NCBI RefSeq assembly: GCF_030535495.1
Contig: NZ_JAUNRW010000002.1
Coordinates: forward strand, 3,654 to 67,653
Direction of reading: 5' to 3'
Length of the DNA: 64,000 nucleotides
Origin: Corynebacterium sp.
GTDB taxonomy: Bacteria > Actinomycetota > Actinomycetes > Mycobacteriales > Mycobacteriaceae
Both the position numbers and the translations under genes were made by a program. Of this stretch, positions 6,440 through 57,803 are shown piece after piece (position 1 is the stretch's first letter; each line of letters begins with the position of its first letter). Under the pieces are notes generated by a model. That model did no database searches. It was not told the origin of the DNA and worked only from the letters and a program-made list of their open reading frames with translations.

Positions 6440-6454
6440 TCAACCGAAAGTTGG
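6440..6454. promoter_or_regulatory. Palindromic operator upstream of ctaE-qcrCAB, candidate HrrA-type site
   Basis: CAAC-CGAAA-GTTG palindrome; ctaE-qcrCAB is a known HrrA target in C. glutamicum; assignment to HrrA is inference. Confidence 0.4.
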
Positions 6455-7380: not shown

Positions 7381-7445
7381 GCCGTAGCCTGCCGAGCAAT
7401 CGGCCTGCAGCCATTCACTTTCCACACCGATATTTCTAAAGGAAA

Positions 7446-9556: not shown

Positions 9557-11184
9557 TGAGCAACAAAGTGGCTCAAGCAGCCAACAACATTGATTCGCGC
9601 TACACCGCGTCCGGTCTGCTGCGTCCGCAGCTGAACAAGGTCTTCCCGACCCACTGGTCCTTCATGCTCGGTGAGATGGCTCTCTACAGCTTCATCATCC
9701 TGCTGCTGACCGGTGTCTACCTGGCGCTGTTCTTCGACCCGTCGATCACCAAGGTGATCTACGACGGCGGCTACCTGCCGCTCAACGGCGTCGAAATGTC
9801 CCGTGCCTACGCAACCGCACTGGACATCTCCTTCGAGGTCCGCGGCGGACTCTTCGTCCGCCAGATGCACCACTGGGCCGCCCTGATGTTCATGATGGCC
9901 ATGGTCGCGCACATGCTGCGTGTCTTCTTCACCGGTGCTTTCCGACGCCCGCGTGAGGCCAACTGGATCATCGGCTGCACCCTGATCATCCTGGGTATGG
10001 CCGAGGGCTTCATGGGCTACTCCCTGCCGGACGACCTGCTCTCCGGCGTCGGCCTCCGCATCATGTCCGCCATCATCCTGGGTCTGCCGATCATCGGTAC
10101 CTGGCTGCACTGGCTGATCTTCGGTGGAGACTTTCCGTCCGACCTCATGCTCGACCGTTTCTACATCGCGCACGTGCTCATCCTGCCGGGTATCATCCTC
10201 GGTCTGATCGCCGCCCACCTGGCGCTGGTCTGGTACCAGAAGCACACCCAGTTCCCGGGCGCCGGCCGCACCGAGAACAACGTCGTCGGCGTCCGCATCA
10301 TGCCGGTCTTCGCCACCAAGGCCATCGGCTACGGTCTCCTGACCGCCGGCGTCCTGGCCCTCATGTCCGGCCTGACGACCATCAACGCGATCTGGAACAT
10401 CGGCCCGTACAACCCGTCGCAGGTCTCCGCAGGTTCCCAGCCTGACGTCTACATGCTGTGGACTGACGGTGTCGCCCGTGTCATGCCGGCATGGGAGCTC
10501 TACCTCGGCAACTACACCATCCCGTCCGCCTTCTGGGTCGCCCTGGTCTGTGGTCTCATGGTCGTGCTGCTGTTCGCCTACCCGTGGATCGAGAAGAAGG
10601 CCACCGGCGACGACGCTCACCACAACCTGCTGCAGCGTCCGCGTGACGTTCCGGTCCGTACCGGCATCGGCGCCATGGGCATCACCTTCTTCCTGCTGGT
10701 GACCATCTCCGGTGGTAACGACCACATCGCCCACTTCTTCCAGATCTCCCTGAACGCGATGACCTGGGTCGGTCGTATCGGCGTCATCATCCTGCCGCCG
10801 CTCGCCTACTTCATCACCCACCGCATCTGTGTCGGCCTGCAGCGTTCCGACCGCGCAGTGCTGGAGCACGGCATCGAGACCGGTGTCATCAAGCAGATGC
10901 CGAACGGTGCCTTCGTGGAGATCCACCAGCCGCTGGGCCCGGTCGACGCACACGGCCACCCGGTCCCGCTGGAGTACGCCGGTGCTGCCGTGCCGAAGCG
11001 TATGAACCAGCTCGGCTTCGCTGACCGCATCTCCCGTGGCTCTCTCATCAAGGCTGACGACCAGCGTTTCACCGACGCTGCCGCTCACACCGCCCACGAG
11101 AACCACCGCGAAGAGGCCGCGATGCTCGACAACCTCAACGAGGTTAACCGCGCCAAGGATCGCGAGTCCGGTTACCTGGACTAA
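9556..11184 (+). CDS. qcrB: Cytochrome b subunit of the bc1 complex
   Basis: [22 protein letters not shown] motifs; 542 aa; TAATG overlap with qcrA. Confidence 0.95.
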
Positions 11185-11211
11185 GTTCCGACTGCAGTTT
11201 CCACTGCGCTC

Positions 11212-11263
11212 ACGAGTAGAGACCCTGTCTCCCCGATACCTGGGGGAGGCAGGGTCTCCTCGT
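11212..11263 (+). terminator. Intrinsic terminator after qcrB
   Basis: GAGACCCTGTCTCCCC / GGGGGAGGCAGGGTCTC stem with ACGAG / CTCGT extension. Confidence 0.75.
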
Positions 11264-11346
11264 TGTTCCGGGAGCTGCGTCGCCAAACGGTATCCACACT
11301 GTTATATGTGTGGTTCATGGGCTCCCTGTGACGGGAAACTCCAGCG

Positions 11347-11362
11347 TGTGAGGTAAATCACT
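11347..11362. promoter_or_regulatory. Candidate GlxR (CRP-family) site upstream of nlpC
   Basis: TGTGA-GGTAAA-TCACT, one mismatch to TGTGA-N6-TCACA. Confidence 0.65.
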
Positions 11363-11536
11363 TGCCAGGCGCGGCAGGGGTGGAGTCTCCGTGGCGGCGG
11401 GTTCGATCACTCACCTCGGGGGCATCCCCTAGGGGTTATCCGTGCAGGTCAGGGGGTGTCTGACGTCTGCCGTCTGCCGGCGGCCGCAGGGCGGGCCGGG
11501 GGACGGGCGGCAGCGTTCCGTCGCCACGTTCAAGCG

Positions 11537-11555: not shown

Positions 11556-11659
11556 GACACGCCGGGCCCTGCGTTGGACAATGTTCGTTGTAGTTTCGTA
11601 ACCTATTCGAGACATTGCGGGGCTTCCCGGTGAAGCCTCCGAATGACTGAACTGAACAT

Positions 11660-11810
11660 ACTGCCTAATCCCCGTAAGGGGAGCCGGGGAACCACTACAA
11701 CGTTTTCTGGGGTGCATCCTCCGCAAGAGCGTCCATCGAGGACGCGGAGTGGGGGAGGGAAGCTTCCGAAGATCCCAACCCGACAGCTAACCCGGTAGGC
11801 ACAAGGAAGA
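11660..11810 (+). ncRNA. c-di-AMP (ydaO/yuaA) riboswitch
   Basis: Family hallmarks AATCC..AAGGGGAGCCGGGGAACC, TGGGGTG, AACCCGACAGCTAACCCGGTAGGC; closing TGCCTA (11662) / TAGGCA (11796) pairing; precedes a cell-wall hydrolase. Confidence 0.92.
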
Positions 11811-11825
11811 TCTGGAGAAACATTC

Positions 11826-28455: not shown

Positions 28456-28480
28456 CCTTGAGCGACATCAAGGGTGGGGC

Positions 28481-28572
28481 GGGGTACGTGTACGGACTCT
28501 GCCCGAGGTGATGCTCTGGTGTACTTCCCCGACATCAGATGAACACATCGGGCAGGGCCCTGTACGTGCCCC
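28481..28572 (+). ncRNA. mraW RNA motif (actinobacterial cis-regulatory hairpin)
   Basis: Long hairpin (GGGGTACGT/ACGTGCCCC, TGCCCGA/TCGGGCA, TCTGGTGT/ACATCAGA) capped by a CTTCCCC loop, in the rsmH (mraW) 5' region. Confidence 0.75.
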
Positions 28573-28619
28573 GCAGCCTGGACTGACAGTGACGAAATGA
28601 CCAGGAAGGGGGCGCGGCC

Positions 28620-43659: not shown

Positions 43660-44385
43660 ATGTCCCTACGCAGCGCCAACGAGGCCCCCCGCCCCGTCCG
43701 CATGGTGTTCACCACCCGTGCGGGCGGGGTGTCGTCGTCTCCCTATGACTCCTTCAATCTCGGTGATCATGTCGGGGATGATCCCGCCGCTGTCGCCGCC
43801 AACCGTGAGCGTCTGGCCCGCGTCCTCGAGCTCGAGCACGTGGTGTGGATGGAACAGATCCACTCCCACAACGTCACCGTCGTCGAGGGCCCGCAGGATG
43901 ATCCGGTCGAGGCCACCGACGCCCTCGTGACCACGCAGCGCAGGCTGGCGCTGGCCGTCCTGGTCGCCGACTGCGTGCCGGTACTGCTGGCGGATCATGT
44001 CCACGGCGTCGTGGCGGCCGCCCACGCCGGGCGCATGGGGGCGCGCAACGGAATCGTGCGGCGCACCGTCGAGACGATGCTCGAACTCGGTGCCAGGCCG
44101 GAGAGCATTCAGGTGGTGCTGGGTCCGGCGGCCTCCGGGCGGCACTATGAGGTGCCCGCGGAGATGGCGGCGGACGTCGATAAGCATCTTCCCGGATCGA
44201 CGACCCGCACGGAGAAGGGCACCCCGGGTATCGACGTCCGCGCCGGCCTGGTCCGCCAGCTCATGAGCCTGGGTGTGACCACCATCGAGGCCGATCCGCG
44301 GTGCACCATCGAGGACGAGGACTTCTTCTCCTACCGCCGCGAGGGCACCACCGGTCGCCAGGCGGGGTTGGTGTGGCTGCCGTGA
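43660..44385 (+). CDS. pgeF: Peptidoglycan editing factor / purine nucleoside phosphorylase PgeF (YfiH)
   Basis: FNLGDHVGD, QIHS, ADCVP, HAG, FFSYRR. Confidence 0.92.
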   Translation: MSLRSANEAPRPVRMVFTTRAGGVSSSPYDSFNLGDHVGDDPAAVAANRERLARVLELEHVVWMEQIHSHNVTVVEGPQDDPVEATDALVTTQRRLALAVLVADCVPVLLADHVHGVVAAAHAGRMGARNGIVRRTVETMLELGARPESIQVVLGPAASGRHYEVPAEMAADVDKHLPGSTTRTEKGTPGIDVRAGLVRQLMSLGVTTIEADPRCTIEDEDFFSYRREGTTGRQAGLVWLP

Positions 44386-45044
44386 GTCGCCTCGAGGAAC
44401 TGCGGACCAATCTCGCCGCCACCCGGGCGCGTATCGACGCCGCCGCGGGCACCCGCCCCGTCCGCCTGCTGCCCGTGACCAAGTTCCACCCCGCCTCCGA
44501 CCTGGAGCTGCTGCTGGAGCTCGGCGTCACCGATGTCGCGGAGAACCGCGAGCAGGAGGCGCGGGCCAAGGCGGAGGCGGTGCCGGGGATGCGCGTCCAC
44601 ATGATCGGCCAGATCCAGACGAAGAAGGCGAACTCCGTGGCACGGTGGGCCGCGAGTGTCCACTCCCTGGATTCCGTGCGCCTGGCGCAGGCCCTTGACC
44701 GCGGGGTCGCGCTGGCCCTGGAACGCGGCGACCGCACCACCTCCCTGCCCGTCTATCTGCAGCTGTCCGCCGACGGCGACACCGCCCGCGGGGGAGTGAC
44801 GGAGGAGGAGCTTCCCGAGCTCATCGACGTCGTGCAGGCCGCCGAGCACCTCGAACTGCGAGGCCTCATGGTGGTGCCGCCGCTGGGCGTGGATCCGGCC
44901 GGGGTGTTCGCCCGCGCGCGTGAACTCAGCGCCGGAATGGAGCTGTCGGCCGGCATGTCCGCCGACCTGGAAATCGCCATCGCGCAGGGCACCGACATCG
45001 TGCGTGTCGGTACCGATGTGATGGGTCAGCGCCCACTAGCGTAA
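44382..45044 (+). CDS. yggS: PLP homeostasis protein YggS
   Basis: VTKF, AENREQE, HMIGQIQ, LSAGMSAD, VRVGT; GTGA overlap with pgeF. Confidence 0.92.
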   Translation: MSRLEELRTNLAATRARIDAAAGTRPVRLLPVTKFHPASDLELLLELGVTDVAENREQEARAKAEAVPGMRVHMIGQIQTKKANSVARWAASVHSLDSVRLAQALDRGVALALERGDRTTSLPVYLQLSADGDTARGGVTEEELPELIDVVQAAEHLELRGLMVVPPLGVDPAGVFARARELSAGMELSAGMSADLEIAIAQGTDIVRVGTDVMGQRPLA

Positions 45045-45101
45045 AAGCACAGTTACCGACAATAACCCCCGCGCCAGCTGCAACAACGGGAGAGGAACCA
45101 T

Positions 45102-45569
45102 ATGTCTATCATCCGGAACGCCAAGGAGTTCTTCGGTCTGACTCCGATCGACATGGAGCACGAGGACGCCTACTACGACTACGACCGCGAGGAGCCGCGC
45201 TACCGCTCCAGCGGTTCCGCCGCCTACGCACCTTCCCGTGAGTACAGCTACGACTACGACCGCGAGGAGCGCCCCCGCTACGAGCCCGCCGCGAAGCTCG
45301 TCGCCGTCGAGGTCTCCTCCTACAGCGAGGCCGCCCGGATCGGTGAGCCCTTCCGTGACGGAGATGCCGTGGTCTTCGACATGACCCGCATGGAGCCGGG
45401 TGAGAACAAGCGCATCGTCGATTTCGCTGCCGGCCTCTGCTACGCCCTGCGCGGCCGCATGGTCAACGTGTCCAAGAACGTGGACACCGATCGTCAGGTC
45501 TTCGCCATCGTCCCCGAGGGCGCCGACTTCTCCCAGGCGGAGTTCGAGCGTTCCGCGAAGCTGCGCTGA
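45102..45569 (+). CDS. sepF: Cell division protein SepF
   Basis: N-terminal amphipathic helix, FRDGDAVV, KRIVDFAAGL. Confidence 0.93.
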   Translation: MSIIRNAKEFFGLTPIDMEHEDAYYDYDREEPRYRSSGSAAYAPSREYSYDYDREERPRYEPAAKLVAVEVSSYSEAARIGEPFRDGDAVVFDMTRMEPGENKRIVDFAAGLCYALRGRMVNVSKNVDTDRQVFAIVPEGADFSQAEFERSAKLR

Positions 45570-45590
45570 TTCGGAACGCAGCTGGACTCA

Positions 45591-45627
45591 GGTAGGCACC
45601 CCGCTCCGGCGGGTGTCTACCTTTTTT
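45591..45627 (+). terminator. Intrinsic terminator after sepF
   Basis: GGTAGGCACCCCGC / GCGGGTGTCTACC stem followed by TTTTTT. Confidence 0.8.
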
Positions 45628-45655
45628 GTCTGCCCAGGCACTAGGCTCGGTGGGC

Positions 45656-45946
45656 GTGAGTCTTCTCGGAACTGTCCTGTACGTCATCCTGCGGGTGTTC
45701 ACACTCGTCCTCATCGCGCGCATCGTCATTGAGATGATCCAGTCCTTCTCGCGCAATTTCCAGCCGCCGCGCTGGTTCATCTATGTCGCCGAGCCTCTGT
45801 TCGTGGTCACGGATCCGCCGGTCAAGGCGCTGCGGAAGGTCATCCCGCCCCTGCGTATGGGTGGGGTCGCGCTGGACATGTCCGTCATCGTCCTGTTCAT
45901 CATCCTCTCCGTTCTGCAGGTCGTCGTCCTGTCCGTTTTCCGGTGA
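45656..45946 (+). CDS. YggT family membrane protein
   Basis: LIARIVIEMI, TDPPVKALRKVIPPLRMGGVALD; GTG 45656. Confidence 0.88.
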   Translation: MSLLGTVLYVILRVFTLVLIARIVIEMIQSFSRNFQPPRWFIYVAEPLFVVTDPPVKALRKVIPPLRMGGVALDMSVIVLFIILSVLQVVVLSVFR

Positions 45947-46118
45947 CGGGTGGCCGGAAGGTTGAAGCTCCGGTAAAGAATTAGTGTGTCCGTGGTCTCC
46001 GCCGCCCCACCCGGGGTTACACTTGACCAAGCACTCAACGTACGATTAAACGAAATGCATACACGCGGGTCGCACCGCGCAGGCCTACCGGGCCACCACA
46101 CACTCGAAGGGAACGCCA

Positions 46119-47093
46119 ATGCCGCTGACACCAGCTGATGTGCACAACGTCGCTTTCAGTAAGCCGCCGATCGGCAAGCGGGGTTACAACGAGGATGAGG
46201 TCGACCAGTTCCTCGACCTCGTCGAAGACACTCTCGCCCAGCTGCAGGACGACAACGACGATCTTCGCTCCCGCCTCGAGGAGGGCGGTGCGGCAGCCCC
46301 GGCCGCCGCGCGCGATGACGTCGACGAGGCGGCCCTCCGCAAGGAGATCGAGGAGAAGGTCCGTAAGGAGTACGAGGCCAAGCTGAGCGAGTCCCGCAAG
46401 GCCACCGAGAAGGCCGAGGCCGAGGCGAAGACCGCCAAGGCTGATCTGCAGAAGGCCAAGACCGACCTGGAGGCCGCCAAGAAGCAGGCCGCCGCCCAGC
46501 CGGCGCAGCAGCCCCAGAAGGCAGCCGCCGTGGCCGTGCCGAAGGATGCCGCCCCCGCCACCGCGGATACCCACATGCAGGCCGCCAAGGTCCTGGGCCT
46601 GGCCCAGGAGATGGCTGATCGCCTCACCTCCGAGGCCCAGGCCGAGTCCAAGTCCATGCTGGACGAGGCACGCGCTGCCGCCGAGGCCCAGATCTCCGAG
46701 GCCGACCAGAAGTCCCAGTCCCAGCTCGCCGACGCCCAGAAGCGCGCCGAGCAGCAGGTCACTGAGGCCGACACCCGCGCCAAGTCCCTCGTCGCCGATG
46801 CCGAGAAGCGCGCCGAGGAGACCACCAACCAGGCGAACTCCCGCGCTGAGGCGCAGATCCGCCAGGCAGAGGAGAAGGCCAACGCCCTCCAGGCCGACGC
46901 CGAGCGCAAGCACACCGAGATCATGGCGACCGTCAAGCAGCAGCAGACTGCCCTGGAGACCCGTATCGCGGAGCTGCGCACCTACGAGCGTGAGTACCGC
47001 ACCCGCCTGAAGACGCTGCTGGAGTCCCAGCTGCAGGAGCTCGAGTCCCGTGGTTCCGCGGCGCCGAGTGCCGACGCAGGTAAGCAGAACTAA
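46119..47093 (+). CDS. divIVA: Polar growth scaffold DivIVA (Wag31)
   Basis: [33 protein letters not shown], two coiled coils, FEREY-like [10 protein letters not shown]. Confidence 0.97.
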
Positions 47094-47109: not shown

Positions 47110-47150
47110 CCGGTGGGGGTAGCGCATCCGCGTTACCCCCACCGGTTTTT
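47110..47150 (+). terminator. Intrinsic terminator after divIVA
   Basis: CCGGTGGGGGTAGCGC / GCGTTACCCCCACCGG stem followed by TTTTT. Confidence 0.85.
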
Positions 47151-47214
47151 CTGCTTCTCCGGGTAGGGCGCGGTAAGTTTTGTACAACCAACTACCCGCC
47201 TGGAAGGCTCACAA

Positions 47215-49995
47215 GTGCAACGTCTGGAATACGTCACCGAGTTCGGGGATATTGCCGACAGCAGCCAGGCGGAGAAGCGGCTGAAAGTCGTCCTGGTCCG
47301 CGCCAATGCCGGACATGGCAAGACATTCCTGCTGGCCGCCTGCCGGGACTCCTTCACCGGACTGTCACTGACGCTGGATGTCGATGCGCTCGACGCCGAC
47401 ATCCCCGGTTACGCTGCGGATAAGCTGGCGGAACTGCTGGGCGTGGCATGGACGGATGCCGGTTCCGAGCCCGCGATGGCACGCGATCTGGCCACCGCGC
47501 TGAGTTCCCGTGGTCCCCAGGTGCTGCTTATCGACGACGCCCACTGGATCGACGAGCTCTCCTCCCGGATCCTGTGGCGTACGCTGCGCCAACTGGTGGA
47601 CTATCCGGTGACCGTCGTGGTGGCCTTCCGTCCGTGCGACAATTTTCTGGTCCAGCGACTCACCCGCCAGCTCTCCGATCACACGCTCGGCGCGATCATT
47701 GATCTGCAGCCCTTCACCCGCGAGGACATCCGCCAGCTGCTCGATCGGCGCTTCCGTCTCGACGCCTCCGACCGCGTGGTCAGCCGCATCCTCGAACTCA
47801 CCGACGGGATCCCCCTGCATGTCGGCCTCATCGCAGAGCGGATGGTCCGGGGAGACGGCACTCTGTTGGGCGACGTCACCTCCGCAGGAGGAGGTCTGTT
47901 GGAGGGCATCGCCGACTGGTGGGAGGACACCAGTGCGGCGACGCGCAGGGCCGTGGAGGTCGTCTGTGTGGCCGAGGTCGGTCTCCACAGCCATGAGCTG
48001 CAGCAGGTCCTCGACCTGTGGGGTCAGACCGTGCCGGCCATGAGGGAGCTGCGGGCCAACTGCCCCGCCCTGAGCATCACGTCGGGTGGAGTGATCCGTC
48101 CCCGCAATGCACTGGTGGCCGCCGCTTTGCGTGAGACGCTGCCGAGCGACTACACCCGTGATATCCACCGCGTGCTGGGGGAGGTGCTCTCGGGTGAGGA
48201 GGCGTTGTATCACCGGATTCGCGCCGCAGACGACAACATCGCGCCCCTGGCGCAGGAACTGCGCGCCGCAGGGGAGGCCGAACTGGCGGCGGGGCGGTAC
48301 CGCCAGGCCGTCGGCCTGGCCCGCCGACTCCTCGACACGGTTCGGGACGTCGACTCCCTGCGCCTGACGTACCTGGCGGCGGTCCGGGGCGGGATGGTGT
48401 CCGAACTGACCTACCTGCAACCTCACCTCGGACGGGTTCCCTTCCCCCTGCTGCGGGGTGCGTGCCAGACCCTCATTGCCGCCGCTCTCGATGACGCCAC
48501 TGCGGTGGCCGAGCACTTCGGCGAGATCGCCTCCCTCGACCACGCCGACGAAGCGATCACCGACCGCCTCTTGCGCGGTTATGCCGCCACCGAGTTCGTC
48601 CGCGTCATGTCCGCGTACTTCCGTTTCGATCTCATCATCCCCATGACGGCGGGGGTCCTGGCGGATCTCGATTCCCTCGCCGACACAGGAAGCGATGAGG
48701 TGGCCAGGGAAGCGGCGATCCTGGCGGCGTTGATCCGGAAGTTCGTCGAGACCTCACACACCTCCCCGGAGCACACGCTCGCGTCGATGAGCACACTCCA
48801 GGAGATCGTCGACGGACTCGCGACCTTCCCTGATACGCGGGACGCACAGCTGTCCCTGCTGTCGGCGCGCGGATCGATCGCCTGCAACGTGGGGCTGTTC
48901 GAAGAAGGACGGAAGGATCTGGAGGCCGCGGCACTGGCGCCGAAAGGTCACGTCAACTGGCAGATGCAGTCCCGGATCGCGCTCTCCCACATCTACTTCG
49001 AGAACGGGCAGTGGGACGACGTCGTCCAACTCCTGCGCTCCGGCCTGGGAGACGCCCTCGACATCCTCTCCGACCCCGCGCCGCTGGCCGCCTATGCCAC
49101 TCTGGGGGCCGTGCACTCCGGGCGGGGCGACGTGACGGAGGCGCAGGCACACCGCCGGATCATCGACTCAGTGGAGGACCAGCAGCTGGCCGCCTATGCC
49201 GCGGCGGAATCGCTCTGGGCTCTGGTGTGGACCTGGCAGTTGACCGGTGATGAAGACACCATCGCGCCGACGGTGGTGGCGGCCTACCCCGGTTTCCAGT
49301 TCAATTCACTGCTGTGGACTTTCGCCGGTCCGGCCGCTGTGGCAGGGATGGTGCGGGCGCTCATCGCGGCCGATCGGATGGACGACGCCGCGGCCCTGGT
49401 CGCCTCTGGATTGTCAGCCTTGTGGGTGGAACCCGAGGTCAGCGCTTACGTGGACGCACACTCCCGGGCGCTGCTCGATCTGGCGCAGGGCAGGGCGGAC
49501 CGGGCCTTCCAGGACCTCATGGCCCTCCACGGCCGCTTTGCCGCCCACGCCGAGTCCGTGCGGGCGGGCCGACTCATCGTGGCGATGGTGGCTCTCGATG
49601 CCGCCCGTGCCTGGCTGGCCGGTAGCCGTGAGCCCGAGGTGACGGGGCTGCGGGCCGCCCTCGACGCGGCCCGGTTGCTGGCCCTGCGGGTCGGTGCGCT
49701 GCCCCTGCTCGGGATGATCCATGATCTGGACGAGGCGTTGGCCACCGAAGCCCCGGAGGCGAGCCCGGTCGCTTCTCCGGCGTCGCCGCTTTTCGATTTC
49801 ACCCAGCTCACTGCCCGCGAAAGAGAGATCTCCTACCTGGTGGGTCAGGGGCTGAGCAACCAGGAGATGGCGGAGCAGCTGTTCCTGTCCGTGCGCACCG
49901 TGGAGTATCACGTCTACAACGCGACCCACAAGCTCAATCTCTCGTCCCGCGTTGAGCTGCGCCGCCTCGTCCGGGACGGCTTGTCGCTGAACTAG
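47215..49995 (+). CDS. Large ATP-binding LuxR-family (LAL/MalT-type STAND) transcriptional regulator
   Basis: P-loop ANAGHGKT, Walker B VLLIDDAHWID, long helical middle region, C-terminal LuxR HTH LTAREREISYLVGQGLSNQEMAEQLFLSVRTVEYH; SD GGAAGG; 926 aa. Confidence 0.88.
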   Translation: MQRLEYVTEFGDIADSSQAEKRLKVVLVRANAGHGKTFLLAACRDSFTGLSLTLDVDALDADIPGYAADKLAELLGVAWTDAGSEPAMARDLATALSSRGPQVLLIDDAHWIDELSSRILWRTLRQLVDYPVTVVVAFRPCDNFLVQRLTRQLSDHTLGAIIDLQPFTREDIRQLLDRRFRLDASDRVVSRILELTDGIPLHVGLIAERMVRGDGTLLGDVTSAGGGLLEGIADWWEDTSAATRRAVEVVCVAEVGLHSHELQQVLDLWGQTVPAMRELRANCPALSITSGGVIRPRNALVAAALRETLPSDYTRDIHRVLGEVLSGEEALYHRIRAADDNIAPLAQELRAAGEAELAAGRYRQAVGLARRLLDTVRDVDSLRLTYLAAVRGGMVSELTYLQPHLGRVPFPLLRGACQTLIAAALDDATAVAEHFGEIASLDHADEAITDRLLRGYAATEFVRVMSAYFRFDLIIPMTAGVLADLDSLADTGSDEVAREAAILAALIRKFVETSHTSPEHTLASMSTLQEIVDGLATFPDTRDAQLSLLSARGSIACNVGLFEEGRKDLEAAALAPKGHVNWQMQSRIALSHIYFENGQWDDVVQLLRSGLGDALDILSDPAPLAAYATLGAVHSGRGDVTEAQAHRRIIDSVEDQQLAAYAAAESLWALVWTWQLTGDEDTIAPTVVAAYPGFQFNSLLWTFAGPAAVAGMVRALIAADRMDDAAALVASGLSALWVEPEVSAYVDAHSRALLDLAQGRADRAFQDLMALHGRFAAHAESVRAGRLIVAMVALDAARAWLAGSREPEVTGLRAALDAARLLALRVGALPLLGMIHDLDEALATEAPEASPVASPASPLFDFTQLTAREREISYLVGQGLSNQEMAEQLFLSVRTVEYHVYNATHKLNLSSRVELRRLVRDGLSLN

Positions 49996-50609
49996 TCGGC
50001 GGCCACCCACAGTTCCAGCGCCCGACTGCCGTGGACGACGCTGCCGTAGTCGTTGGTGCCGGTCACCCTGGTGATGACGGTGAGCACCCACCCGGCGGTG
50101 TCGTCCGCAGCGCGCGGCAGCTGCAGGGCGTCGATGAACGAGGACGGTTCCGTGACGGAGTAGCCGCTGAGATCCTGGCTGCCGTCGGAAAGCACGCTCA
50201 TATCGCCTGTCGGCTCGAGAGCGTTGTTGACGGGCTGGGCGTAGACCGTCAGGGTGGTCAGCGTGACTCGGTCAGTCGAGCGCGGCACCAGCGACACCCG
50301 GATCATGGCGATGGGGGAGTCGAGGTTCGGGACGTCCGTCCAGGTGCTCACCCGCAGCTCATGTCCTGAGACGTCGGTGATGACCTCGGTGGGCGGTGGG
50401 GGCAGAACCGGCTCCGGAAACGTCGGCAAGCTGAAGGTGGGGCGCTCCCGGGGGATGGCCGCTACCTGGGTGTCGACGCCGTCCACCGGGGTGGACAGGG
50501 CCGGGACGGGGAAGGCACTGCGCATCAGCGACGAGATCTCCGGGGTGGAGCACGCCGACAACGGCATGCACACCGCGAGCGCGAGGCAGGCGAATCGTAG
50601 GCGGTTCAT
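49992..50609 (-). CDS. Lipoprotein of unknown function
   Basis: ATG 50609 after SD GGAGA; basic N-terminus, hydrophobic stretch, lipobox LSAC; Pro-rich linker then a beta-rich domain; 205 aa. Confidence 0.75.
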   Translation of the reverse strand: MNRLRFACLALAVCMPLSACSTPEISSLMRSAFPVPALSTPVDGVDTQVAAIPRERPTFSLPTFPEPVLPPPPTEVITDVSGHELRVSTWTDVPNLDSPIAMIRVSLVPRSTDRVTLTTLTVYAQPVNNALEPTGDMSVLSDGSQDLSGYSVTEPSSFIDALQLPRAADDTAGWVLTVITRVTGTNDYGSVVHGSRALELWVAAD

Positions 50610-50641
50610 GGGTCTCCCATCAGGGCAACGGTTGGTTCTTA

Positions 50642-50753
50642 GGGGTAGTACAGCCACTGGTCATGCGCGGCGCAAGGGAAACCCGGGGAAACCGGTAGCG
50701 GTCCCGGTAGTGGGGAAGACTCCCGTAGTTTTCCCCGTACTAGTTTCCTCCCC
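50642..50753. repeat. Cluster of short SSGTAG and GGGGAA/TTCCCC repeats in the lipoprotein-GT2 divergent promoter
   Basis: GGGGTAG 50642, CCGGTAG 50692 and 50704, CCCGTAG 50722, CCCGTAC 50734; TAGTTTTCCCC and TAGTTTCCTCCCC. Confidence 0.55.
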
Positions 50754-50783
50754 GAAATGTGTTCTGCGGCATATCTTTCTGGC

Positions 50784-52244
50784 ATGACCACTCCCGACAC
50801 CACCGCTCCCTCGACCGACGTGAGCACCATCGACCCGGACAATCACTTCCTCACCTATGCCCCCCAACGCGCAGCCGAGGTGGAGGTGTACCGTGCGCCC
50901 TCGATCGTGGCCTGCATCATTCCCGCCTACAACGAGGAATCCACCATCGCGGCGGTCCTGGAATCCGTCCTGGCGCAGTCGCGGCTTCCCGACGTCGTCC
51001 ACGTCGTGGTGAACAACACCACGGACGACACCTACTGGATCGCCCGTGAGTACTGCGGACGTCACGACATCGACTACCGCGGCGTACAGCAGTCGACCGA
51101 GATCTTCATCCACGACGTCGGCCGCATGGCCGACCGCAAGGTCGGTGCCCTGAACTACGGATTCGATCTGCTCGGGGAGGACGTCGACTACGTCATCGGC
51201 GTCGACGGTGACACCACCCCGCATCCCAAGGCCTTCGAACGTCTGCTGGCGGAGGCGGAGTCGGACTCACGCATCGGTGGTGTCAGCGCCATCTACAGTA
51301 TCGACACCCACGGGCACCGAGGGCCGATCGCCAACTTCCTCGTCGTCGGTCAGCGTGCGCAGTTCGCCTCCTTCACACTGCTCAACCTGTGCCGCGGCCG
51401 CAACATGGCGGTGCTCGGAGGGCAGTGTTCCATCTTCTCCGCGCGCGCCCTGCGCCATGTCAAGCAGTCCTACAACCAGAAGACACCCTGGGTCAACGAT
51501 TCGGAGGTGGAGGATTCGCTGCTCAGCCTGCAGATCCGGTCGGCCGGCTATCTGACGAAGATCTCCAGCACCGCGCGCGCCGACGTCGGCGGAATGACCA
51601 CTCTTCGGGCCCTGGACGCCCAGCAGGTCAAGTGGAACTACGGGGCGATCGACCTCATGTGGCCCGGGGAGCGTGGAAACCTCCGCGGCCAACCGTTCCA
51701 TCCCAACCTGCGGCTGCGCTGGTACGAAAACATCGAGATGCTCCTCAACTTCGTCGTCCGTGTCGGCTTCGTCCTGCTGCTCTTGGCCTCGCTGTCCATC
51801 GGTGCCTTCAGCTTCCAGTGGTGGTGGCTCATTCCGCCGGTGCTGGCGACCCTGCTCAACCTGCGCGTGGCACTGACCATGGAGAATCGGACCACCAAGG
51901 ACATCCTCTTCGCCCTGTTGTTCTTCCCGGCGGAAATCTACATGTGGATCAAGATAGGCCACTTCCTCCGTGCCTGGACGCGATTCCTCTCCCGGGTGAA
52001 CACGGACAACTGGGGTGATCAGGCGAAGGCGGAACAGGGCAAGGGTGGCTGGAAGTATCTCGGGCCCCTGCTGGCACTGGTCATCGTGGTCATCATCGCC
52101 GTCGGTATGTGGCTGAGCATGCCCACCAACGCCCAGGTCATCGCGCTGTGGATCGGCTGGCCGATCCAGGCGGCGGTGACGCTCATCCTGTGTCTCATCA
52201 TGGTCCGCCGCCTGACGCGGCGACAGTACGGCTACCGTGTATAA
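50784..52244 (+). CDS. GT2 processive-type membrane glycan synthase (D,D,D,QxxRW-like)
   Basis: IIPAYNEE, KVGALN, DGD, EVED, QQVKW, then about 4-5 C-terminal TM helices; ATG 50784 with -10 TATCTT 6 nt upstream. Confidence 0.85.
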   Translation: MTTPDTTAPSTDVSTIDPDNHFLTYAPQRAAEVEVYRAPSIVACIIPAYNEESTIAAVLESVLAQSRLPDVVHVVVNNTTDDTYWIAREYCGRHDIDYRGVQQSTEIFIHDVGRMADRKVGALNYGFDLLGEDVDYVIGVDGDTTPHPKAFERLLAEAESDSRIGGVSAIYSIDTHGHRGPIANFLVVGQRAQFASFTLLNLCRGRNMAVLGGQCSIFSARALRHVKQSYNQKTPWVNDSEVEDSLLSLQIRSAGYLTKISSTARADVGGMTTLRALDAQQVKWNYGAIDLMWPGERGNLRGQPFHPNLRLRWYENIEMLLNFVVRVGFVLLLLASLSIGAFSFQWWWLIPPVLATLLNLRVALTMENRTTKDILFALLFFPAEIYMWIKIGHFLRAWTRFLSRVNTDNWGDQAKAEQGKGGWKYLGPLLALVIVVIIAVGMWLSMPTNAQVIALWIGWPIQAAVTLILCLIMVRRLTRRQYGYRV

Positions 52245-52245
52245 T
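52237..52245 (+). promoter_or_regulatory. ileS promoter -10 element overlapping the GT2 stop codon
   Basis: GTG-TATAAT (hexamer 52240-52245) about 40 nt upstream of the T-box. Confidence 0.65.
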
Positions 52246-52282
52246 CGCCGATGTCTGTCCCGTCTTTCCGGCGGGCAACACG

Positions 52283-52417
52283 CCATGATCCGGCCATCAC
52301 CGGGGAGCGTCTCCGGAAGAACAGCCCGTGGGGCCCAGTAGAACCGGATCACCATGAACGAAGTGGGGTGCCGTGGCACCCAAGCAGGGTGGTACCGCGC
52401 AGCACATGCGTCCCTGC
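52283..52417 (+). ncRNA. Ile T-box riboswitch (actinobacterial translational type)
   Basis: Short stem I GATCCGGCC-ATC-ACCGGGGAGC with Ile specifier ATC at 52296, AGTA/GAA S-turn elements, T-box AAGCAGGGTGGTACCGCG, GCAGGG / CCCTGC pairing. Confidence 0.92.
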
Positions 52418-52449
52418 ACCGCCTGTCCCGTTCGTGAGTGAAGGAAGAT

Positions 52450-55400
52450 ATGTCCGAGCAGAAGAAGACCGCCGTCGGCGGCGTCTACCCGAAGGTCGAC
52501 ATGACCGGGGGCTCCTCCCGTTTCCCTGACATGGAGGAGATCGTCCTCGACTACTGGAAGAAGGACGGTACCTTCCAGGCTTCCCTGGACCAGCGCGAGG
52601 GAGCCAAGGAGTACGTCTTCTACGACGGCCCGCCCTTCGCCAACGGCCTGCCGCACTACGGCCACCTGCTCACCGGCTACGTCAAGGACATCATCCCGCG
52701 TTTCCGCACCATGACCGGGCACCATGTGCCCCGCGTCTTCGGCTGGGACACCCATGGCCTGCCGGCGGAGCTGGAGGCGGAGAAGCAGCTCGGCATCACC
52801 GACAAGGGCCAGATCGAGGACATGGGTCTGGCGAAGTTCAACGAGTACTGCGCCGAGAGCGTGCTCCGCTACACCGAGGAGTGGAAGGAGTACGTCACCC
52901 GTCAGGCACGCTGGGTCGACTTCGACAACGGCTACAAGACGATGGACCCGGGGTACATGGAGTCCGTCATCTGGGCCTTCAAGCAGCTCTACGACAAGGG
53001 CCTGATCTACCAGGGCTTCCGCGTCCTGCCGTACTCCTGGGCCGAGCACACGCCCCTGTCGAACCAGGAGACGCGTCTCGACGACTCCTACAAGATGCGC
53101 CAGGATCCCACGCTGACCGTCACCTTCCCGGTGACCGGCGCCGTCGCCGGTTCCGCCGCGGAAAAGTCGCTCGCCGCCCAGCCCCTGCTTGCCGACGCCG
53201 CCGCGCTGGCCTGGACCACCACCCCCTGGACCCTGCCGTCGAACCTGGCGCTCGCCGTCCACCCGGAGGTCGATTACGCGCTGGTGAAGTCCGAGCACGG
53301 CGTGTACCTCATGGCCGCCCCGCTGGTGGGCACCCTGGCCAAGGAGTTCGGGGAGCACGAGGTCGTCGATACGCTCGCCGGCGCTCAGCTCGAGGGCCTG
53401 CAGTACCAGCCCATCTTCGACTACTTCGCCGACGAGCCCAACGCCTTCCAGATCATCCTCGCCGACTACGTCACCGTCGAGGACGGCACCGGTGTCGTCC
53501 ACCAGGCCCCGGCCTTCGGTGAGGACGACATGGAGTCCTGTAAGCAGTACGGCATCGGTGTGGTCATCCCCGTCGACATGGACGGCAAGTTCACCTCCCA
53601 GGTCCCGGAGTACGAGGGCCAGCTGGTCTTCGACGCCAACAAGGACATCATCCGCGACCTCAAGGAGCGCGGCCGGGTGGTGCGCCACCAGACCATCGAG
53701 CACTCCTACCCGCACTCCTGGCGTTCCGGCGAGCCGCTCATCTACATGGCGCTGCCGTCCTGGTTCGTCCGCGTCACCGAGATCCGCGACCGCATGGTCG
53801 AACTCAACCACGAGGAGATCACCTGGCTGCCGGAGCACGTCCGCGACGGACAGTTCGGCAAGTGGCTGGAGAACGCCCGCGACTGGAACATCTCCCGCTC
53901 CCGTTACTGGGGTTCGCCGATCCCGGTGTGGGTCTCCGACAACGACGAGTACCCGCGTATCGACGTCTACGGCTCCCTCGACGAGCTCGAGGCCGACTTC
54001 GGCGTGCGCCCGACGTCCCTGCACCGCCCCTACATCGACGAGCTGACCCGCCCGAACCCGGATGATCCGAGCGGCCGGTCCACCATGCGCCGTGTCCCGG
54101 ATGTGCTGGACGTGTGGTTCGACTCCGGGTCCATGCCCTTCGCGCAGTTCCACTACCCCTTCGAGAACAAGGAGTTCTTCGAGGAGCACAACCCGGCCGA
54201 CTTCATCGTGGAGTACATCGGCCAGACCCGCGGCTGGTTCTACCTGCTGCATGTGCTCTCGGTGGGCCTGTTCGACCGCCCGGCGTTCAAGAAGGTCGTC
54301 GCCCACGGCATCGTGCTGGGTGATGACGGCCAGAAGATGTCCAAGTCCAAGGGCAACTACCCCAACGTCAACGAGGTCTTCGACCGCGACGGCTCCGACG
54401 CCATGCGCTGGTTCCTCATGTCCTCGCCGATCCTGCGCGGCGGCAACCTCATCGTCACCGAGCAGGGCATCCGCGACGGCGTGCGCCAGGCGCTGCTGCC
54501 GATCTGGAACGCCTACTCCTTCCTGCAGCTGTACTCCTCGCAGCCGGCGCAGTGGTCCGTGGATTCCGAGGACGTCCTCGACCGCTACATCCTGGCCAAG
54601 CTGCATGACCTGGTCGGCACCGTCCGCGTTTCCCTGGACAACACCGACATCGCCGACGCCACCGATGCCGTGCGCCAGTTCGCCGATGCGCTGACCAACT
54701 GGTACGTGCGTCGTTCCCGCGGCCGATTCTGGCTCGGCGACGAGGAGCACCCGGAGGCCTTCAACACCCTCTACACGGTGCTCGAGGTGCTCACCCGCGT
54801 CACCGCCCCGCTGCTGCCGATGACCTCCGAGGTCATCTGGCGCGGCCTGACCGGTGAGCGCTCCGTCCACCTGGCCAACTTCCCGGAGGCCGCGGACATC
54901 CCCGCGGATGCCGACCTGGTCACCGCGATGGACGCCACCCGCGGTGTCTGCTCCGCAGCCTCCTCGGTGCGCAAGGCGCACAAGCTGCGCAACCGCCTGC
55001 CGCTGCCGTCCCTGACCGTGGCGCTGCCGGACTCCGGCCAGCTCGAGCCCTTCGCCGCCATCATCCGCGACGAGGTCAACGTCAAGAACATCGAGCTGAC
55101 CTCGGATGTCGACGCCGTGGGTACCTTCGAGGTCGTCGTCAACGCCCGTGCCGCCGGCCCGCGCCTGGGCAAGGACGTCCAGCGCGTGATCAAGGCCGTC
55201 AAGGCGGGCAACTACGAGCGCGTCGGTGACACGGTCGTCGCCGACGGCATCGAGCTCAACGCCGACGAGTACACCGAGCGCCTCGTCGCCGCGAACCCGG
55301 AGTCGACCGCGCGTATCGACGGCCTCGACGGCCTCGTCGTCCTCGACATGGAGGTCACCGAGGAGCTGGAGGCCGAGGGCTGGGCCGCGGATGTCATCCG

Positions 55401-55617
55401 CGGTCTGCAGGATGCCCGCAAGGCCAGCGGCCTGGAGGTCTCCGACCGCATCAGCGTCGTCCTTTCCGTTCCGGAGGACAAGCTGGAGTGGGCGCAGCGC
55501 CACCGCGATCTCATCGCCGGTGAAGTCCTGGCCCTCGAGCTGGACGTGACCACCGAGGATCTGGGCGAGGCGCATGACGTGGTCTCCGGAGTGAAGGCGA
55601 CCGTCGTCAAGCGATGA
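52450..55617 (+). CDS. ileS: Isoleucine--tRNA ligase (type 2)
   Basis: [48 protein letters not shown]; ATG 52450 after SD AAGGAAG. Confidence 0.97.
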
Positions 55618-56423
55618 ACCTCCGCGCTCCGGCGGTGATGATCGCGTCGGGTGTCAGCCTGTACGCGGGAGCCGCCGTGGCGGTCGGGCTTTTCGACGTC
55701 CTGCCGCCCGCCATCGTCGCCTGGTTCCGCATCTCCGCCGCCGCCGTCATCCTGCTGGCGCTGGTGCGCCCGCGCCTGGCGGATTTCCGCAGTGTCCCGG
55801 CCCTCATCTACGGCCTGGCGACCATGGGCATGAACATGGCCTTCTACGAGTCCATCGCCCGCCTGCCCCTGGGCACCGCCGTGGCGGTGGAGTTCCTCGG
55901 TCCGGTGCTGGTCGCCGCGGTGGGCTCCCGCTCGATCCGTGACTGGCTCGCGTTGGCCCTGGCCACGAGTGGAGTGGTGGTCATTTCCGGGGCCGTGTGG
56001 TCGACGGCCGCCGTGGGGCTCGGCTTCGCCCTGCTGGCCGGCGGACTGTGGGCGGTCTACATTCTCGTCGGTTCGCGCATCGCCGTGAGCAGCCCGCGCA
56101 AGTCCATGACCACCGGTTTCACCATGGCGGCCGTGCTCGCCCTGCCACTGGTGGTGTGGGGGTGGCCGGAGCATGTCGAGACCCCCGCGACCATGCTCCT
56201 CGGCCTGGCACTCGGGTTGGGCGTGCTGTCGGCGGTCATTCCCTACTCCCTTGACCAGGTGGTCATGCGGATGGCCGGGTCCTCCTACTTCGCGCTCCTG
56301 CAGGCGCTGCTGCCGGTGGTCGCCGCCGTCCTCGGCGCGGTGGCCCTGGGCCAGTGGCTGTCGCTCCCGGAAGTGGTGGGCATCGTGCTGGTCGTTGCCG
56401 CCGTTGCTTTACGACGCCCGTAA
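55614..56423 (+). CDS. EamA/RhtA-type drug/metabolite transporter
   Basis: [25 protein letters not shown] and [10 protein letters not shown] motifs; about 10 TM helices; ATGA overlap with ileS. Confidence 0.85.
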
Positions 56424-56432
56424 CCTGTACCT

Positions 56433-57803
56433 ATGCAACGCTGGGTTCTCCACATCGACATGGACGCGTTCTACGCCTCCGTCGAGCAGCTGACCCGGCC
56501 GACCCTCCGCGGCCGCCCCGTGCTGGTGGCGGGGGTGTCCGGCAGGGGAGTGGTGGCCGGTGCCAGCTACGAGGCCCGCAGATTCGGCGCCCGTTCCGCC
56601 ATGCCCACGCACCAGGCCGCGCGCCTGGTCGGATTCTCCGCGGTGCTGGTCGCGCCGCGGAAGGCGGTGTACGCGGTGGCGTCGAGACGCGTCTTCGAGC
56701 TCATCTCCTCCCACGTCGGGCTGGTGGAGCAACTGTCCATCGACGAGGCCTTCATGGAACCCGAGGCCCTGGTCGGCGCCACCCCCGCCGAGGTCAGACA
56801 GTGGGCGGATGAGCTCCGCGCACTCATTCGGGAGGAGACGGGATTGCCGTCCTCCATCGGTGCCGGCACCGGCAAGCAGTACGCCAAGATCGGCTCCGGA
56901 CGGGCGAAACCCGACGGTACCTTCGTCATTCCCGGCGACACGCAACTGGAGATCCTCCATCCCATGCCCGTCTCCGAGCTGTGGGGCGTCGGCCCGGTCA
57001 CCCGCACCAAACTCTCCCAGATCGGAGTGGAGACGATCGGGGATCTGGCCGCCCTGACCCCGAAGGAGGTCGAGATCTCCCTCGGCGGCACCGTCGGCCC
57101 TGGTCTGTGGGCTTTGGCCAACGGTATCGACGAGCGCCCCGTCGAACCGCGCGCCGAGGCCAAGTCCATCTCCGCCGAGTACACCTACCCGCGCGATCTG
57201 ACGACGCGCCCGGAGGTCGACGCCGCCATCACCCGCGCCGCCGAGGCCGCCCACCGGCGCCTGCTTATCGACGGCCGCGGCTCCCGCACCGTCACCGTCA
57301 AACTCAAGATGTCCGACTTCCGGATCGAGTCCCGCTCCGCCACCCTTCCCTATGCCACCGACAACTACGACACTTTGCTGGCCACCGCTTTCCGGCTGGT
57401 GCGCTACCCCGGCGAGGTGGGGGCGATCCGGTTGGTGGGTGTCGGTTTCACCGGACTGGAGACCGCGCAGCAGGATGTGCTCTTCCCGGAACTCGACCAG
57501 CAGGTGGTGGTGGCCAGCCCGGATGATGATTTCGAGACCGGGGTCAGCGATCACATCGTCGAACCTGTCGTGGAGGTGGAGGAGGAGGACACCGGCTGGC
57601 GGGCCACCCAGGATGTGTTCCACCCGGACCACGGGCACGGCTGGGTACAGGGCACCGGACACGGGATCGTGTCGGTACGTTTCGAGACGCGCGCTACCGG
57701 GCCGGGCAGGACCCGCACCTTCGCTGTGGACGATCCCGACCTCCGTCCGGCCGACCCCGTGGCCAGTCTGGCCTGGGACGAGTGGCTGGAAAAGCAGGAC
57801 TAG
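56433..57803 (+). CDS. dinB: DNA polymerase IV (actinobacterial DinB1/DinX with C-terminal extension)
   Basis: HIDMDAFYASVE, ASYEAR, SIDEAF, AKIGS..KPDG; C-terminal DVFHPDHGHGWVQG..VRFET. Confidence 0.95.
   Translation: MQRWVLHIDMDAFYASVEQLTRPTLRGRPVLVAGVSGRGVVAGASYEARRFGARSAMPTHQAARLVGFSAVLVAPRKAVYAVASRRVFELISSHVGLVEQLSIDEAFMEPEALVGATPAEVRQWADELRALIREETGLPSSIGAGTGKQYAKIGSGRAKPDGTFVIPGDTQLEILHPMPVSELWGVGPVTRTKLSQIGVETIGDLAALTPKEVEISLGGTVGPGLWALANGIDERPVEPRAEAKSISAEYTYPRDLTTRPEVDAAITRAAEAAHRRLLIDGRGSRTVTVKLKMSDFRIESRSATLPYATDNYDTLLATAFRLVRYPGEVGAIRLVGVGFTGLETAQQDVLFPELDQQVVVASPDDDFETGVSDHIVEPVVEVEEEDTGWRATQDVFHPDHGHGWVQGTGHGIVSVRFETRATGPGRTRTFAVDDPDLRPADPVASLAWDEWLEKQD

Follow-up and report, generated by a model that had tools for sequence, protein, structure and literature searches.

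A candidate polysaccharide synthesis cassette encoding a LAL-type regulator, a lipoprotein, and a family 2 glycosyltransferase between divIVA and ileS of a Corynebacterium sp.

Synthase-dependent exopolysaccharide systems have been examined in depth for Gram-negative bacteria, for Streptomyces, and for a small number of Firmicutes, but very little is known about them in Micrococcales, Propionibacteriales, and Corynebacterium. The present analysis concerns a segment that separates divIVA from ileS in a 64-kb stretch of DNA from a Corynebacterium sp. (contig NZ_JAUNRW010000002.1); "the window" means this whole stretch, and coordinates given without a locus name refer to it. The segment encodes three proteins: a regulator of the LAL type (large ATP-binding regulators of the LuxR family), a predicted lipoprotein, and a membrane glycosyltransferase of family 2 (GT2). 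In the reading favored here, with a probability of roughly 60%, it is a horizontally acquired, self-contained three-gene cassette for the regulated synthesis of a cell-surface or extracellular polysaccharide. Full-text literature searches found no published description of the module, and the LAL-lipoprotein-GT2 system appears not to have been described before.

The Streptomyces proteins CslA, GlxA, and CslZ form, with LpmP, an apical glycan system in which CslZ is a lipoprotein of glycoside hydrolase family 6 (GH6) (PMC9040799). This system resembles the cassette in that an actinobacterial, cellulose synthase-like membrane GT2 would need membrane-tethered extracytoplasmic partners to make a surface β-glycan; GH6 genes also accompany the lipoprotein-GT2 pair in 57 related loci. 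However, the window cassette lacks the GlxA copper radical oxidase, a lytic polysaccharide monooxygenase, and GH6, and therefore does not belong to the CslA-GlxA-CslZ group. Its partner lipoprotein has no recognizable catalytic domain, a dedicated regulator is built into the cassette, and its GT2 falls in a distinct clade (about 480 aa, with a QQVKW motif) whose listed relatives come from Micrococcales and Propionibacteriales, not from Streptomyces. The BcsA-BcsB system also pairs a processive GT2 with a membrane-anchored extracytoplasmic partner at the emerging chain, and relatives of the window pair adjoin GGDEF proteins. In contrast to BcsA, the window GT2 shows no Pfam match to a PilZ domain, and the cassette encodes neither a BcsB homologue nor an outer membrane component, which places it outside that system. 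Escherichia coli NfrB-NfrA-DgcJ is an exopolysaccharide synthase under local control by cyclic di-GMP (PMC8669469). Here the likeness is limited to the sister loci, where a diguanylate cyclase-like membrane protein is encoded beside the GT2 synthase; the window cassette has no GGDEF gene, and its GT2 has no Pfam match to MshEN either.

PgaCD and IcaAD resemble the cassette in combining a processive GT2 with a small, obligate, noncatalytic membrane partner. Nevertheless, the cassette carries no deacetylase (PgaB/IcaB), and its partner is a lipoprotein with a predicted extracytoplasmic β domain, not a small transmembrane peptide. Class I hyaluronan synthases, chitin synthases, and NodC share the D, DxD, ED, and QxxRW-like motifs with the window GT2 and provide the best structural matches to its model, but they are only 12 to 16% identical to it and work without a dedicated lipoprotein partner. 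The cassette lacks at least one defining feature of each of these named families, and the GT2 belongs to none of the named synthase families. The regulator has its closest parallels in MalT and other LAL proteins (such as PikD and AveR), which have about 900 to 1,000 residues, an N-terminal NTPase with Walker A and B motifs, and a C-terminal LuxR-type helix-turn-helix (HTH) domain, and act as pathway-specific activators encoded beside their targets. The proposed target of the window regulator is a glycan synthase pair, as opposed to a catabolic regulon or an antibiotic gene cluster.

Scanning 185,579 species genomes with the GT2 alignment detected relatives in 483 species; the 80 best loci were fetched, and 79 loci were analyzed. 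The order and orientation found in the window, LAL (+), lipoprotein (-), and GT2 (+), recur unchanged in Georgenia sp. Z1344, where the genes encode a 936-aa AAA_16/GerE protein, a 250-aa unannotated protein, and a GT2, and in two Propionibacteriaceae genomes, namely, Propionibacteriaceae bacterium AM104-82 (locus L032) and a metagenome-assembled genome (MAG; locus L060). Among the loci, full-length relatives of the window regulator are encoded only in Georgenia (L002, L005, and L006), L032, and L060. The triad has tig on its left and clpP1-clpP2-clpX on its right in Georgenia, an ABC-F gene and cobT in L032, an ABC-F gene and fba in L060, and divIVA and ileS in the window; these flanks are unrelated housekeeping genes, and the conserved part comprises exactly three genes. 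The convergent stop codons of the first two genes overlap in L032 (CTAA), similarly to those in the window (CTAG at 49992-49995). In a neighbor-joining tree of the 79 GT2s, the four triad members form a single clade apart from all others. The three genes have been inherited and moved as a unit, and the triad is a real, coherent, relocatable unit, though a rare one.

An initial annotation of this DNA, made from the letters alone, had taken the three genes for one self-contained unit and had made the proposal depend on their co-occurrence in other genomes. The triad was indeed found in three more lineages, and the unit is supported by the same arrangement elsewhere, the differing flanks, the GT2 clade, and the clean insertion described below. 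The initial reading of a self-contained, regulated glycan module is supported; it did not include the horizontal acquisition, the large lipoprotein family, or the different regulatory genes of most relatives. A metagenome scan with an alignment of the four LALs detected no further triads, only generic LAL/LuxR proteins, none of them beside a GT2. Three GT2 homologues close to that of the window (P0003, P0007, and P0009) adjoin a small protein gene and no LAL gene. In Georgenia sp. Z1344, the triad and its flanks are present twice at 100% identity (L005 and L006), on contigs 9 and 10 (194,673 and 193,873 bp), which reflects either an assembly duplication or a large recent duplication.

The site of the insertion was defined by comparison with C. 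nasicanis (L165), the closest relative found here. Exact-sequence cluster look-ups identify the source as a Corynebacterium: clustering at 90% identity groups the window MraY with C. pollutisoli, C. humireducens, C. hylobatis, and C. lemuris, and SepF clusters with C. nasicanis. The latter has the gene order sepF-yggT-divIVA-ileS-EamA-dinB, so divIVA and ileS, described in the initial annotation as close neighbors, are direct neighbors, 252 bp apart. By blastn, contiguous C. nasicanis DNA matches the window with 87.5% identity over positions 44003-47092 and again over positions 52280-57802, whereas the 5,187 bp in between are unaligned and have as their counterpart 65 bp that hold the C. nasicanis divIVA terminator. 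A second genome (L166) likewise lacks this segment. Given that 5,187 bp stand in place of 65 bp, the three genes represent an insertion into a conserved housekeeping junction, and the segment appears, from these alignments, to have been acquired horizontally.

The Pfam scan of the window found no transposase or integrase domains; no tRNA target was found either, nor were direct or inverted repeats or a target duplication flanking the cassette, and no plasmid-borne family members were detected in PLSDB. The absence of transposase, integrase, and flanking direct repeats had already been remarked upon from the sequence, and the domain scan and the repeat search agree with it. A comparison of GC content with the flanking genes, suggested at the same time, was carried out but did not tell the cassette apart from host genes: its GC and its GC content at third codon positions (GC3) are within the host range (GC3 of 0.83 to 0.87 versus 0.87 ± 0.05). 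This composition is uninformative about the date or source of the transfer because the likely donor groups are equally GC-rich.

Both junctions show additional features. The divIVA terminator in the window differs in sequence from that of C. nasicanis (L165 12000-12030), and the original terminator has been replaced by one carried on the inserted DNA. At the other end, the last GT2 codons and the stop (TAC CGT GTA TAA T; window 52233-52262) resemble L165 12028-12050, located just upstream of the ileS T-box; common to both is CGTGTATA(A/G)T...GATGTC. One possibility is that this stretch serves as the -10 element (TATAAT/TATAGT) in the promoter of the ileS leader, which would then overlap the GT2 stop; another is microhomology used during cassette insertion.

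The GT2 is predicted, from its motifs and modeled fold, to be a processive, membrane-embedded synthase of the hyaluronan/chitin/cellulose synthase type, and the motif set and predicted fold bear out the initial description of a processive membrane GT2. Its start at 50784 is favored over the ATG at 50757 (495 aa) by the database gene call (P0001) and a conserved CATGAC context. More than 1,200 homologues were found, with 56 to 63% identity among the 120 best listed; the named ones are mostly from Micrococcales and also from Nocardioides. The motifs PAYNE, D-K-K-V-G-A-L-N (KVGALN), DGD, SEVEDS, and QQVKW are invariant across the 17 aligned sequences. The AlphaFold2 model (mean predicted local distance difference test score [pLDDT] of 70) contains a GT-A domain followed by long C-terminal helices (residues 307-481). 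In a Foldseek search of the PDB with this model, the top 33 matches are hyaluronan and chitin synthases, followed by BcsA, and the full-length matches to these three kinds have E values of 3e-13 to 4e-9; the best of them, the hyaluronan synthases 8smm and 7sp7, match at an E value of 3e-13 and a template modeling (TM) score of about 0.5 over about 500 aligned columns. Processive synthases cover about 420 to 670 alignment columns, compared to about 255 to 400 for nonprocessive enzymes, which also match more weakly. A sequence-only search of the PDB with the GT2 returned nothing at an E value of ≤0.01. Database entries for its relatives are often labeled "PgaC"; however, the window GT2 scores 33.9 bits against the NCBIfam model PgaC_IcaA (TIGR03937), far below the cutoff of 422.3.

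The lipoprotein begins with MNRLRFACLALAVCMPLSAC, a signal peptide with the lipobox L-S-A-C followed by a serine, in agreement with the pattern [LVI][ASTVI][GAS]C, so its lipidation is predicted. Between the predicted lipidated cysteine and an all-β domain lies a linker of about 50 residues in which Pro, Ala, Thr, and Ser are abundant, and the GC3 of the gene (0.90) is typical of real genes in this genome. A word-indexed search of 5.8 billion proteins and an exhaustive phmmer search of 1.84 billion representatives recovered only an identical copy; a match to a eukaryotic low-complexity protein (P0176) was spurious. This copy occurs in the independent read set SRR24915789, with 205 of 205 residues on record and 99.5% identity by tblastn. 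Taken singly, the lipoprotein and the regulator both look like orphans, and for the lipoprotein such direct homology searches would have implied an orphan gene without a conserved triad, a view overturned by the neighborhoods of the GT2 homologues. In Curtobacterium, a 216-aa unannotated protein is encoded divergently from the GT2, and the Curtobacterium and Georgenia small proteins are both lipoproteins starting with L-x-G-C-G-T-P-P-W-E; tblastn searches with these two produced matches in 74 loci. According to the resulting family hidden Markov model (HMM), the GT2 gene has a family member no more than 0.9 kb away in 53 of the 79 loci and no more than 5.1 kb away in 74 of the 79. The 53 close members are mostly divergent and upstream, as in the window (40 loci), while 8 are upstream in the direction of the GT2 and 5 are downstream. 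This family has no model in Pfam or NCBIfam, and the window lipoprotein likewise matches none in either database.

The window lipoprotein itself scores 17.8 to 18.7 bits (E value of 3.7e-5) against the family HMM, the top score among the 555 six-frame open reading frames (ORFs) of the window and one reached by only 1 of 2,000 shuffles. It aligns with the family collinearly at 17 to 24% identity and is, judging from this profile match, a remote, divergent member of the GT2-associated lipoprotein family. The YWS-L-x-DEW-T block of the family is replaced in it by V-S-T-W-T-D-V-P with a 6-residue deletion. Strict linkage makes a role as the extracytoplasmic partner of the synthase the best-supported inference. 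The initial annotation had assumed a mycolate envelope, which is reasonable for a Corynebacterium, and had suggested that the lipoprotein might move the polymer across it. The latter idea fares poorly: the family is found almost wholly in Micrococcales and Propionibacteriales, which have no mycomembrane, so a mycomembrane-specific role of the lipoprotein is unlikely and its role is probably more general. In Microbacterium (L051, L054, L055, L058, L063, L064, L074, and L076), a second, paralogous lipoprotein of about 270 aa, carrying a ...LDVWAVEPKRTREWTP... block, is encoded directly upstream of the GT2 (e.g., L074 7826-8632), and the canonical family member lies several kilobases away, beyond the kinase and GGDEF genes.

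The regulator is classified, on the basis of its domains, as an LAL-type protein, that is, a signal transduction ATPase with numerous domains (STAND). Its N-terminal P-loop region matches Pfam AAA_22 (E value of 1.2e-6) and AAA_16 (1.1e-3), and residues 864-917 match GerE (7e-15). The Walker A (GHGKT) and Walker B (LLIDDAHW) motifs are retained in all four LAL orthologues, and the recognition helix of the HTH is conserved as well. Between the NTPase and HTH domains, about 650 residues have no Pfam match; distant LAL relatives bear TPR or PF17874 domains. The LALs are collinear along their whole length; the window protein shares 27% identity with the L060 and L032 regulators over about 911 to 986 aligned positions (E values of 8e-37 and 1e-31, respectively), and outside the triad clade its closest database relatives show about 26% identity over half its length.

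The 174-bp lipoprotein-GT2 intergenic region contains four direct repeats of the consensus CCSGTAS, starting at 50692, 50704, 50722, and 50734, i.e., with spacings of 12, 18, and 12 bp. With only 37 such sites on the two strands of the entire window, the presence of four in a stretch of 49 bp is a marked local excess. Alignment of the four triad intergenic regions was uninformative, as the boxes shift register, and k-mer enumeration was used instead. The 6-mers TCCCGG, CCCGGT, CCGGTA, CGGTAG, and GGTAGT topped the counts, with 5 occurrences of GGTAGT versus 0.08 expected. The 10-mer TCCCGGTAGT is shared by three of the four triads (Table 1); in a control, 145 of 200,000 random triples of same-sized segments from these loci shared any 10-mer. 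Each triad array comprises 3 or 4 same-strand copies about one or two helical turns apart, whereas the loci that have a two-component system never show more than one strict site upstream of the GT2. Asymmetric 10-bp boxes arranged in arrays are also the binding sites of MalT. The TCCCGGTAGT-type array is, as judged from its sequence and position, a candidate LAL operator that would tie the regulator type to the divergent promoter. An inverted pair of similar boxes precedes the regulator gene in the window and in L060, and none precedes it in L032 or Georgenia; LAL autoregulation through this pair may occur, as a weak suggestion. Upstream of their LAL genes, L032 (6225-6245) and L060 (6258-6278) share AATGTTAACGCTAGCACTC, which is missing from the window and Georgenia and may be a lineage-specific regulatory site.

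The ORFs around the 79 GT2s were clustered, and representatives were scanned against Pfam. In the usual arrangement of the relatives, mostly Microbacteriaceae, the lipoprotein (-) and the GT2 (+) are accompanied by a PAS-HisKA kinase and a GGDEF membrane protein on one side and by a response regulator of the OmpR type (-) and a membrane-anchored GH6 hydrolase (-) on the other. The tblastn searches place the GH6 gene in 57 of the loci, the kinase gene in 62, and the gene for the response regulator in 68; none of these genes, nor the GGDEF gene, was detected within 10 kb at any LAL-type locus, including the window. In Microlunatus, Micropruina, and some MAGs, which make up a third group, the lipoprotein gene is mostly followed by the GT2 gene in the same direction. 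Since the lipoprotein and GT2 are constant across the loci, they represent the core, and the regulatory input is exchangeable. GH6 enzymes act on β-1,4-glycans, and a neighboring GH6 gene suggests, by analogy, a β-1,4-linked glycan as the family product; the accessory genes of the relatives point to extracellular polysaccharide biology. The broader generalization, that the lipoprotein-GT2 pair is an undescribed, widespread actinobacterial synthase-dependent glycan system (GT2 relatives in at least 483 species) with a new family of lipid-anchored β-domain proteins as an obligate extracytoplasmic synthase subunit, modular sensory input, and a minimal LAL triad that has moved between orders and into a mycolate-walled Corynebacterium, is put forward more tentatively than the cassette reading, at somewhat less than even odds.

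Several individual loci deserve mention. In a metagenomic contig (L167 1566-5849), the lipoprotein-GT2 pair is next to a bacterial tyrosine (BY) kinase-like protein (574 aa), a low-molecular-weight phosphotyrosine phosphatase, and a GT4 glycosyltransferase, neighbors that are typical of exopolysaccharide loci. In a MAG (uncultured Actinomycetota MFD01916.bin.2.34; L026, about 5700-11400), a lipoprotein-GT2 pair with both genes in the same direction comes immediately after ileS (1,090 aa). The pair is thus linked to ileS a second time, independently and in an arrangement different from that in the window. The locus L048 is recorded under the name "Corynebacterium-like bacterium B27", which is probably misleading: its GT2 groups with Herbiconiux in the tree and its kinase-GGDEF-lipoprotein-GT2 arrangement is typical of Microbacteriaceae, so that it provides no evidence for the module in corynebacteria.

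The features of the window locus are listed in Table 1; the genes, stop codons, hairpin, T-box, and orientations reported in the initial annotation were all found in place. The GT2 gene is divergent from the lipoprotein gene, and the regulator and lipoprotein genes are convergent. All three cassette ORFs are open, with host-like GC3 values of 0.83 to 0.90. The ileS T-box, which is also kept in C. nasicanis, scores below the RF00230 gathering threshold of 93 because most of its Stem I is missing (about 76 model positions are represented by 6 nt); we take this small Stem I to match the reduced actinobacterial type of ileS T-box. Elsewhere in the window, a cyclic di-AMP (ydaO-type) riboswitch (11652-11816; 72 bits) and an mraW RNA motif (28477-28580; 62 bits), the latter at the head of the division and cell wall (dcw) cluster, both score above their Rfam gathering thresholds.

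Table 1. Coordinates of the cassette, its junctions, and the shared intergenic 10-mer
Feature	Coordinates	Strand	Description
divIVA	46119-47093	+	Pfam DivIVA, E 1.4e-14; host DNA, left junction; syntenic with C. nasicanis
Inserted segment	47093-52279	not applicable	5,187 bp; blastn against C. nasicanis L165
Terminator-like hairpin 3' of divIVA	47110-47145	+	16-bp stem with 12 GC pairs, then a T-run
Box-like inverted pair 5' of regulator gene	47158-47198		CGGGTAG at 47160-47166 (+), CTACCCG at 47192-47198
LAL-type regulator, 926 aa	47215-49995	+	Pfam AAA_22, AAA_16, GerE
Lipoprotein, 205 aa	49992-50609	-	Signal peptide and lipobox; remote match to family HMM
CCSGTAS direct-repeat array, candidate LAL operator	50692-50740	+	Four copies
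10-mer TCCCGGTAGT, window	50702		Lipoprotein-GT2 intergenic region; single occurrence in 64 kb
10-mer TCCCGGTAGT, L032	9846, 9877		Equivalent intergenic region; nowhere else in the locus
10-mer TCCCGGTAGT, L060	9840		Equivalent intergenic region; nowhere else in the locus
GT2, 486 aa from ATG 50784	50784-52244	+	Pfam Glycos_transf_2, Glyco_tranf_2_3, Glyco_trans_2_3
ileS T-box leader	52276-52418	+	Rfam RF00230, 48.3 bits, E 1e-9; host DNA, right junction
ileS	52438-55617		Direct neighbor of divIVA in C. nasicanis

In the proposed mechanism, the STAND-type ATPase of the LAL would oligomerize upon receiving a signal and bind the array of 3 or 4 TCCCGGTAGT-like direct repeats in the lipoprotein-GT2 intergenic region, activating both divergent promoters in a manner comparable to MalT. 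The GT2 would build the polymer from a UDP-sugar on the cytoplasmic side of the membrane, and the growing chain would leave through the transmembrane channel of the GT2 itself. The lipoprotein would be held at the outer leaflet by its lipid anchor and flexible Pro-rich linker with the β-sandwich-like domain facing outward, where this domain may receive, guide, or retain the nascent chain or else control the synthase. Such a role would be functionally analogous to those of BcsB, IcaD, or PgaD, with no homology to them. Most other lineages connect the same lipoprotein-GT2 core to a histidine kinase with a PAS domain, a response regulator of the OmpR type, and a GGDEF membrane protein, and have a GH6 hydrolase nearby.

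Several observations weigh against the reading of the segment as a regulated polysaccharide cassette. The canonical QxxRW arginine is a lysine throughout the GT2 family (QQVKW), and the GT2 model, as its pLDDT of 70 and TM score of about 0.5 indicate, is of moderate quality. GH6 is missing within 10 kb at the LAL-type loci, so that the β-1,4-glycan assignment is borrowed from sister clades. The single-sequence model of the lipoprotein has 8 strands at low confidence (pLDDT of 56); its matches to the MD-1, arrestin, and ApaG folds are not significant, and the model is used here only as "all-β". The window lipoprotein also lacks the family mature start C-G-[TAP]-[PA]-P-W, having C-S-T-P-E instead, and its homology to the family rests on the 18-bit profile match and the genomic context. 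The boxes in Georgenia are degenerate (TCCCGGTGGC and CCCGTAC), the LAL form is carried by only four lineages among the loci examined, and the cassette offers no explanation for the passage of a polymer through the corynebacterial mycomembrane.

Some of these points are shared by alternative explanations. The GT2 might be a nonpolymerizing enzyme that makes a glycolipid or a polyprenyl-phosphate sugar (of the GtrB, DPMS, ArnC, or carotenoid/hopanoid type), with the lipoprotein as a downstream acceptor or user of its product, for instance by being glycosylated or by transferring the sugar on the outer side of the membrane. The weak N-terminal NCBIfam matches to HpnB and CruG, the score of 34 bits against PgaC_IcaA, the presence of PcManGT, GpgS, and ArnC in the Foldseek list at E values around 1e-8, the departure from QxxRW, and the lack of glycan-modifying or export genes would all fit such an enzyme. 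However, hyaluronan synthases, chitin synthases, and BcsA, which are processive without exception, provide the best fold matches and extend over more columns than the nonprocessive enzymes, none of the four motifs of processive synthases varies (among them ED and the Q-x-x-[K]-W that precedes a multihelix transmembrane bundle), and the sister loci encode a polysaccharide hydrolase, GH6, which together make this explanation unlikely. A similarly low probability is given to the LAL being a passenger that regulates other genes or responds independently, with the lipoprotein and GT2 genes under their own constitutive or otherwise controlled promoters and the repeated motif being a promoter or other element unrelated to it. 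HTH dimers of the LuxR type usually bind inverted rather than direct repeats, the motif decays in Georgenia, and most lipoprotein-GT2 relatives use other regulators. Against this stand the restriction of the LAL to the motif-bearing GT2 clade, its unvarying location and direction, in which the 3' ends overlap or almost meet, the absence of two or more strict sites upstream of the GT2 in the two-component system loci, the recognition helix conserved among the four LALs, and the box arrays bound by MalT, the prototype of the class.

A third alternative, in which the cassette is a decaying or functionless remnant of horizontal transfer in this Corynebacterium, is considered the least probable of all, and very unlikely. 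It would be in line with the finding of the cassette in this species only (its GT2 and LAL are singleton 90% clusters), with the extreme divergence of the lipoprotein and regulator from their relatives, and with the lack of an envelope-crossing component fit for a mycolate cell wall. Still, the three ORFs are intact with a coding-type GC3; the invariant catalytic positions of the GT2 family, both Walker motifs, and the lipobox are all retained; the box array in the window, with its four copies, is the best preserved of the four loci; and an essentially identical copy of the lipoprotein is present in the independent read set SRR24915789.

The favored reading, that of an acquired three-gene cassette for regulated polysaccharide synthesis, describes a clean acquisition that bears no hallmarks of a mobile element and lies in the dcw-divIVA-ileS region of a Corynebacterium, which is otherwise rigid. 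The locus draws attention to an unannotated conserved lipoprotein family that is tightly linked to a synthase across many genera, and it offers a natural case of one biosynthetic core wired to two different signaling inputs. With one regulator, one candidate operator, one synthase, and one partner, it is a compact and experimentally tractable unit. If the polymer is real, one may ask what becomes of a glycan of this kind beneath a mycomembrane, and it could affect the surface properties, aggregation, or biofilm formation of corynebacteria.

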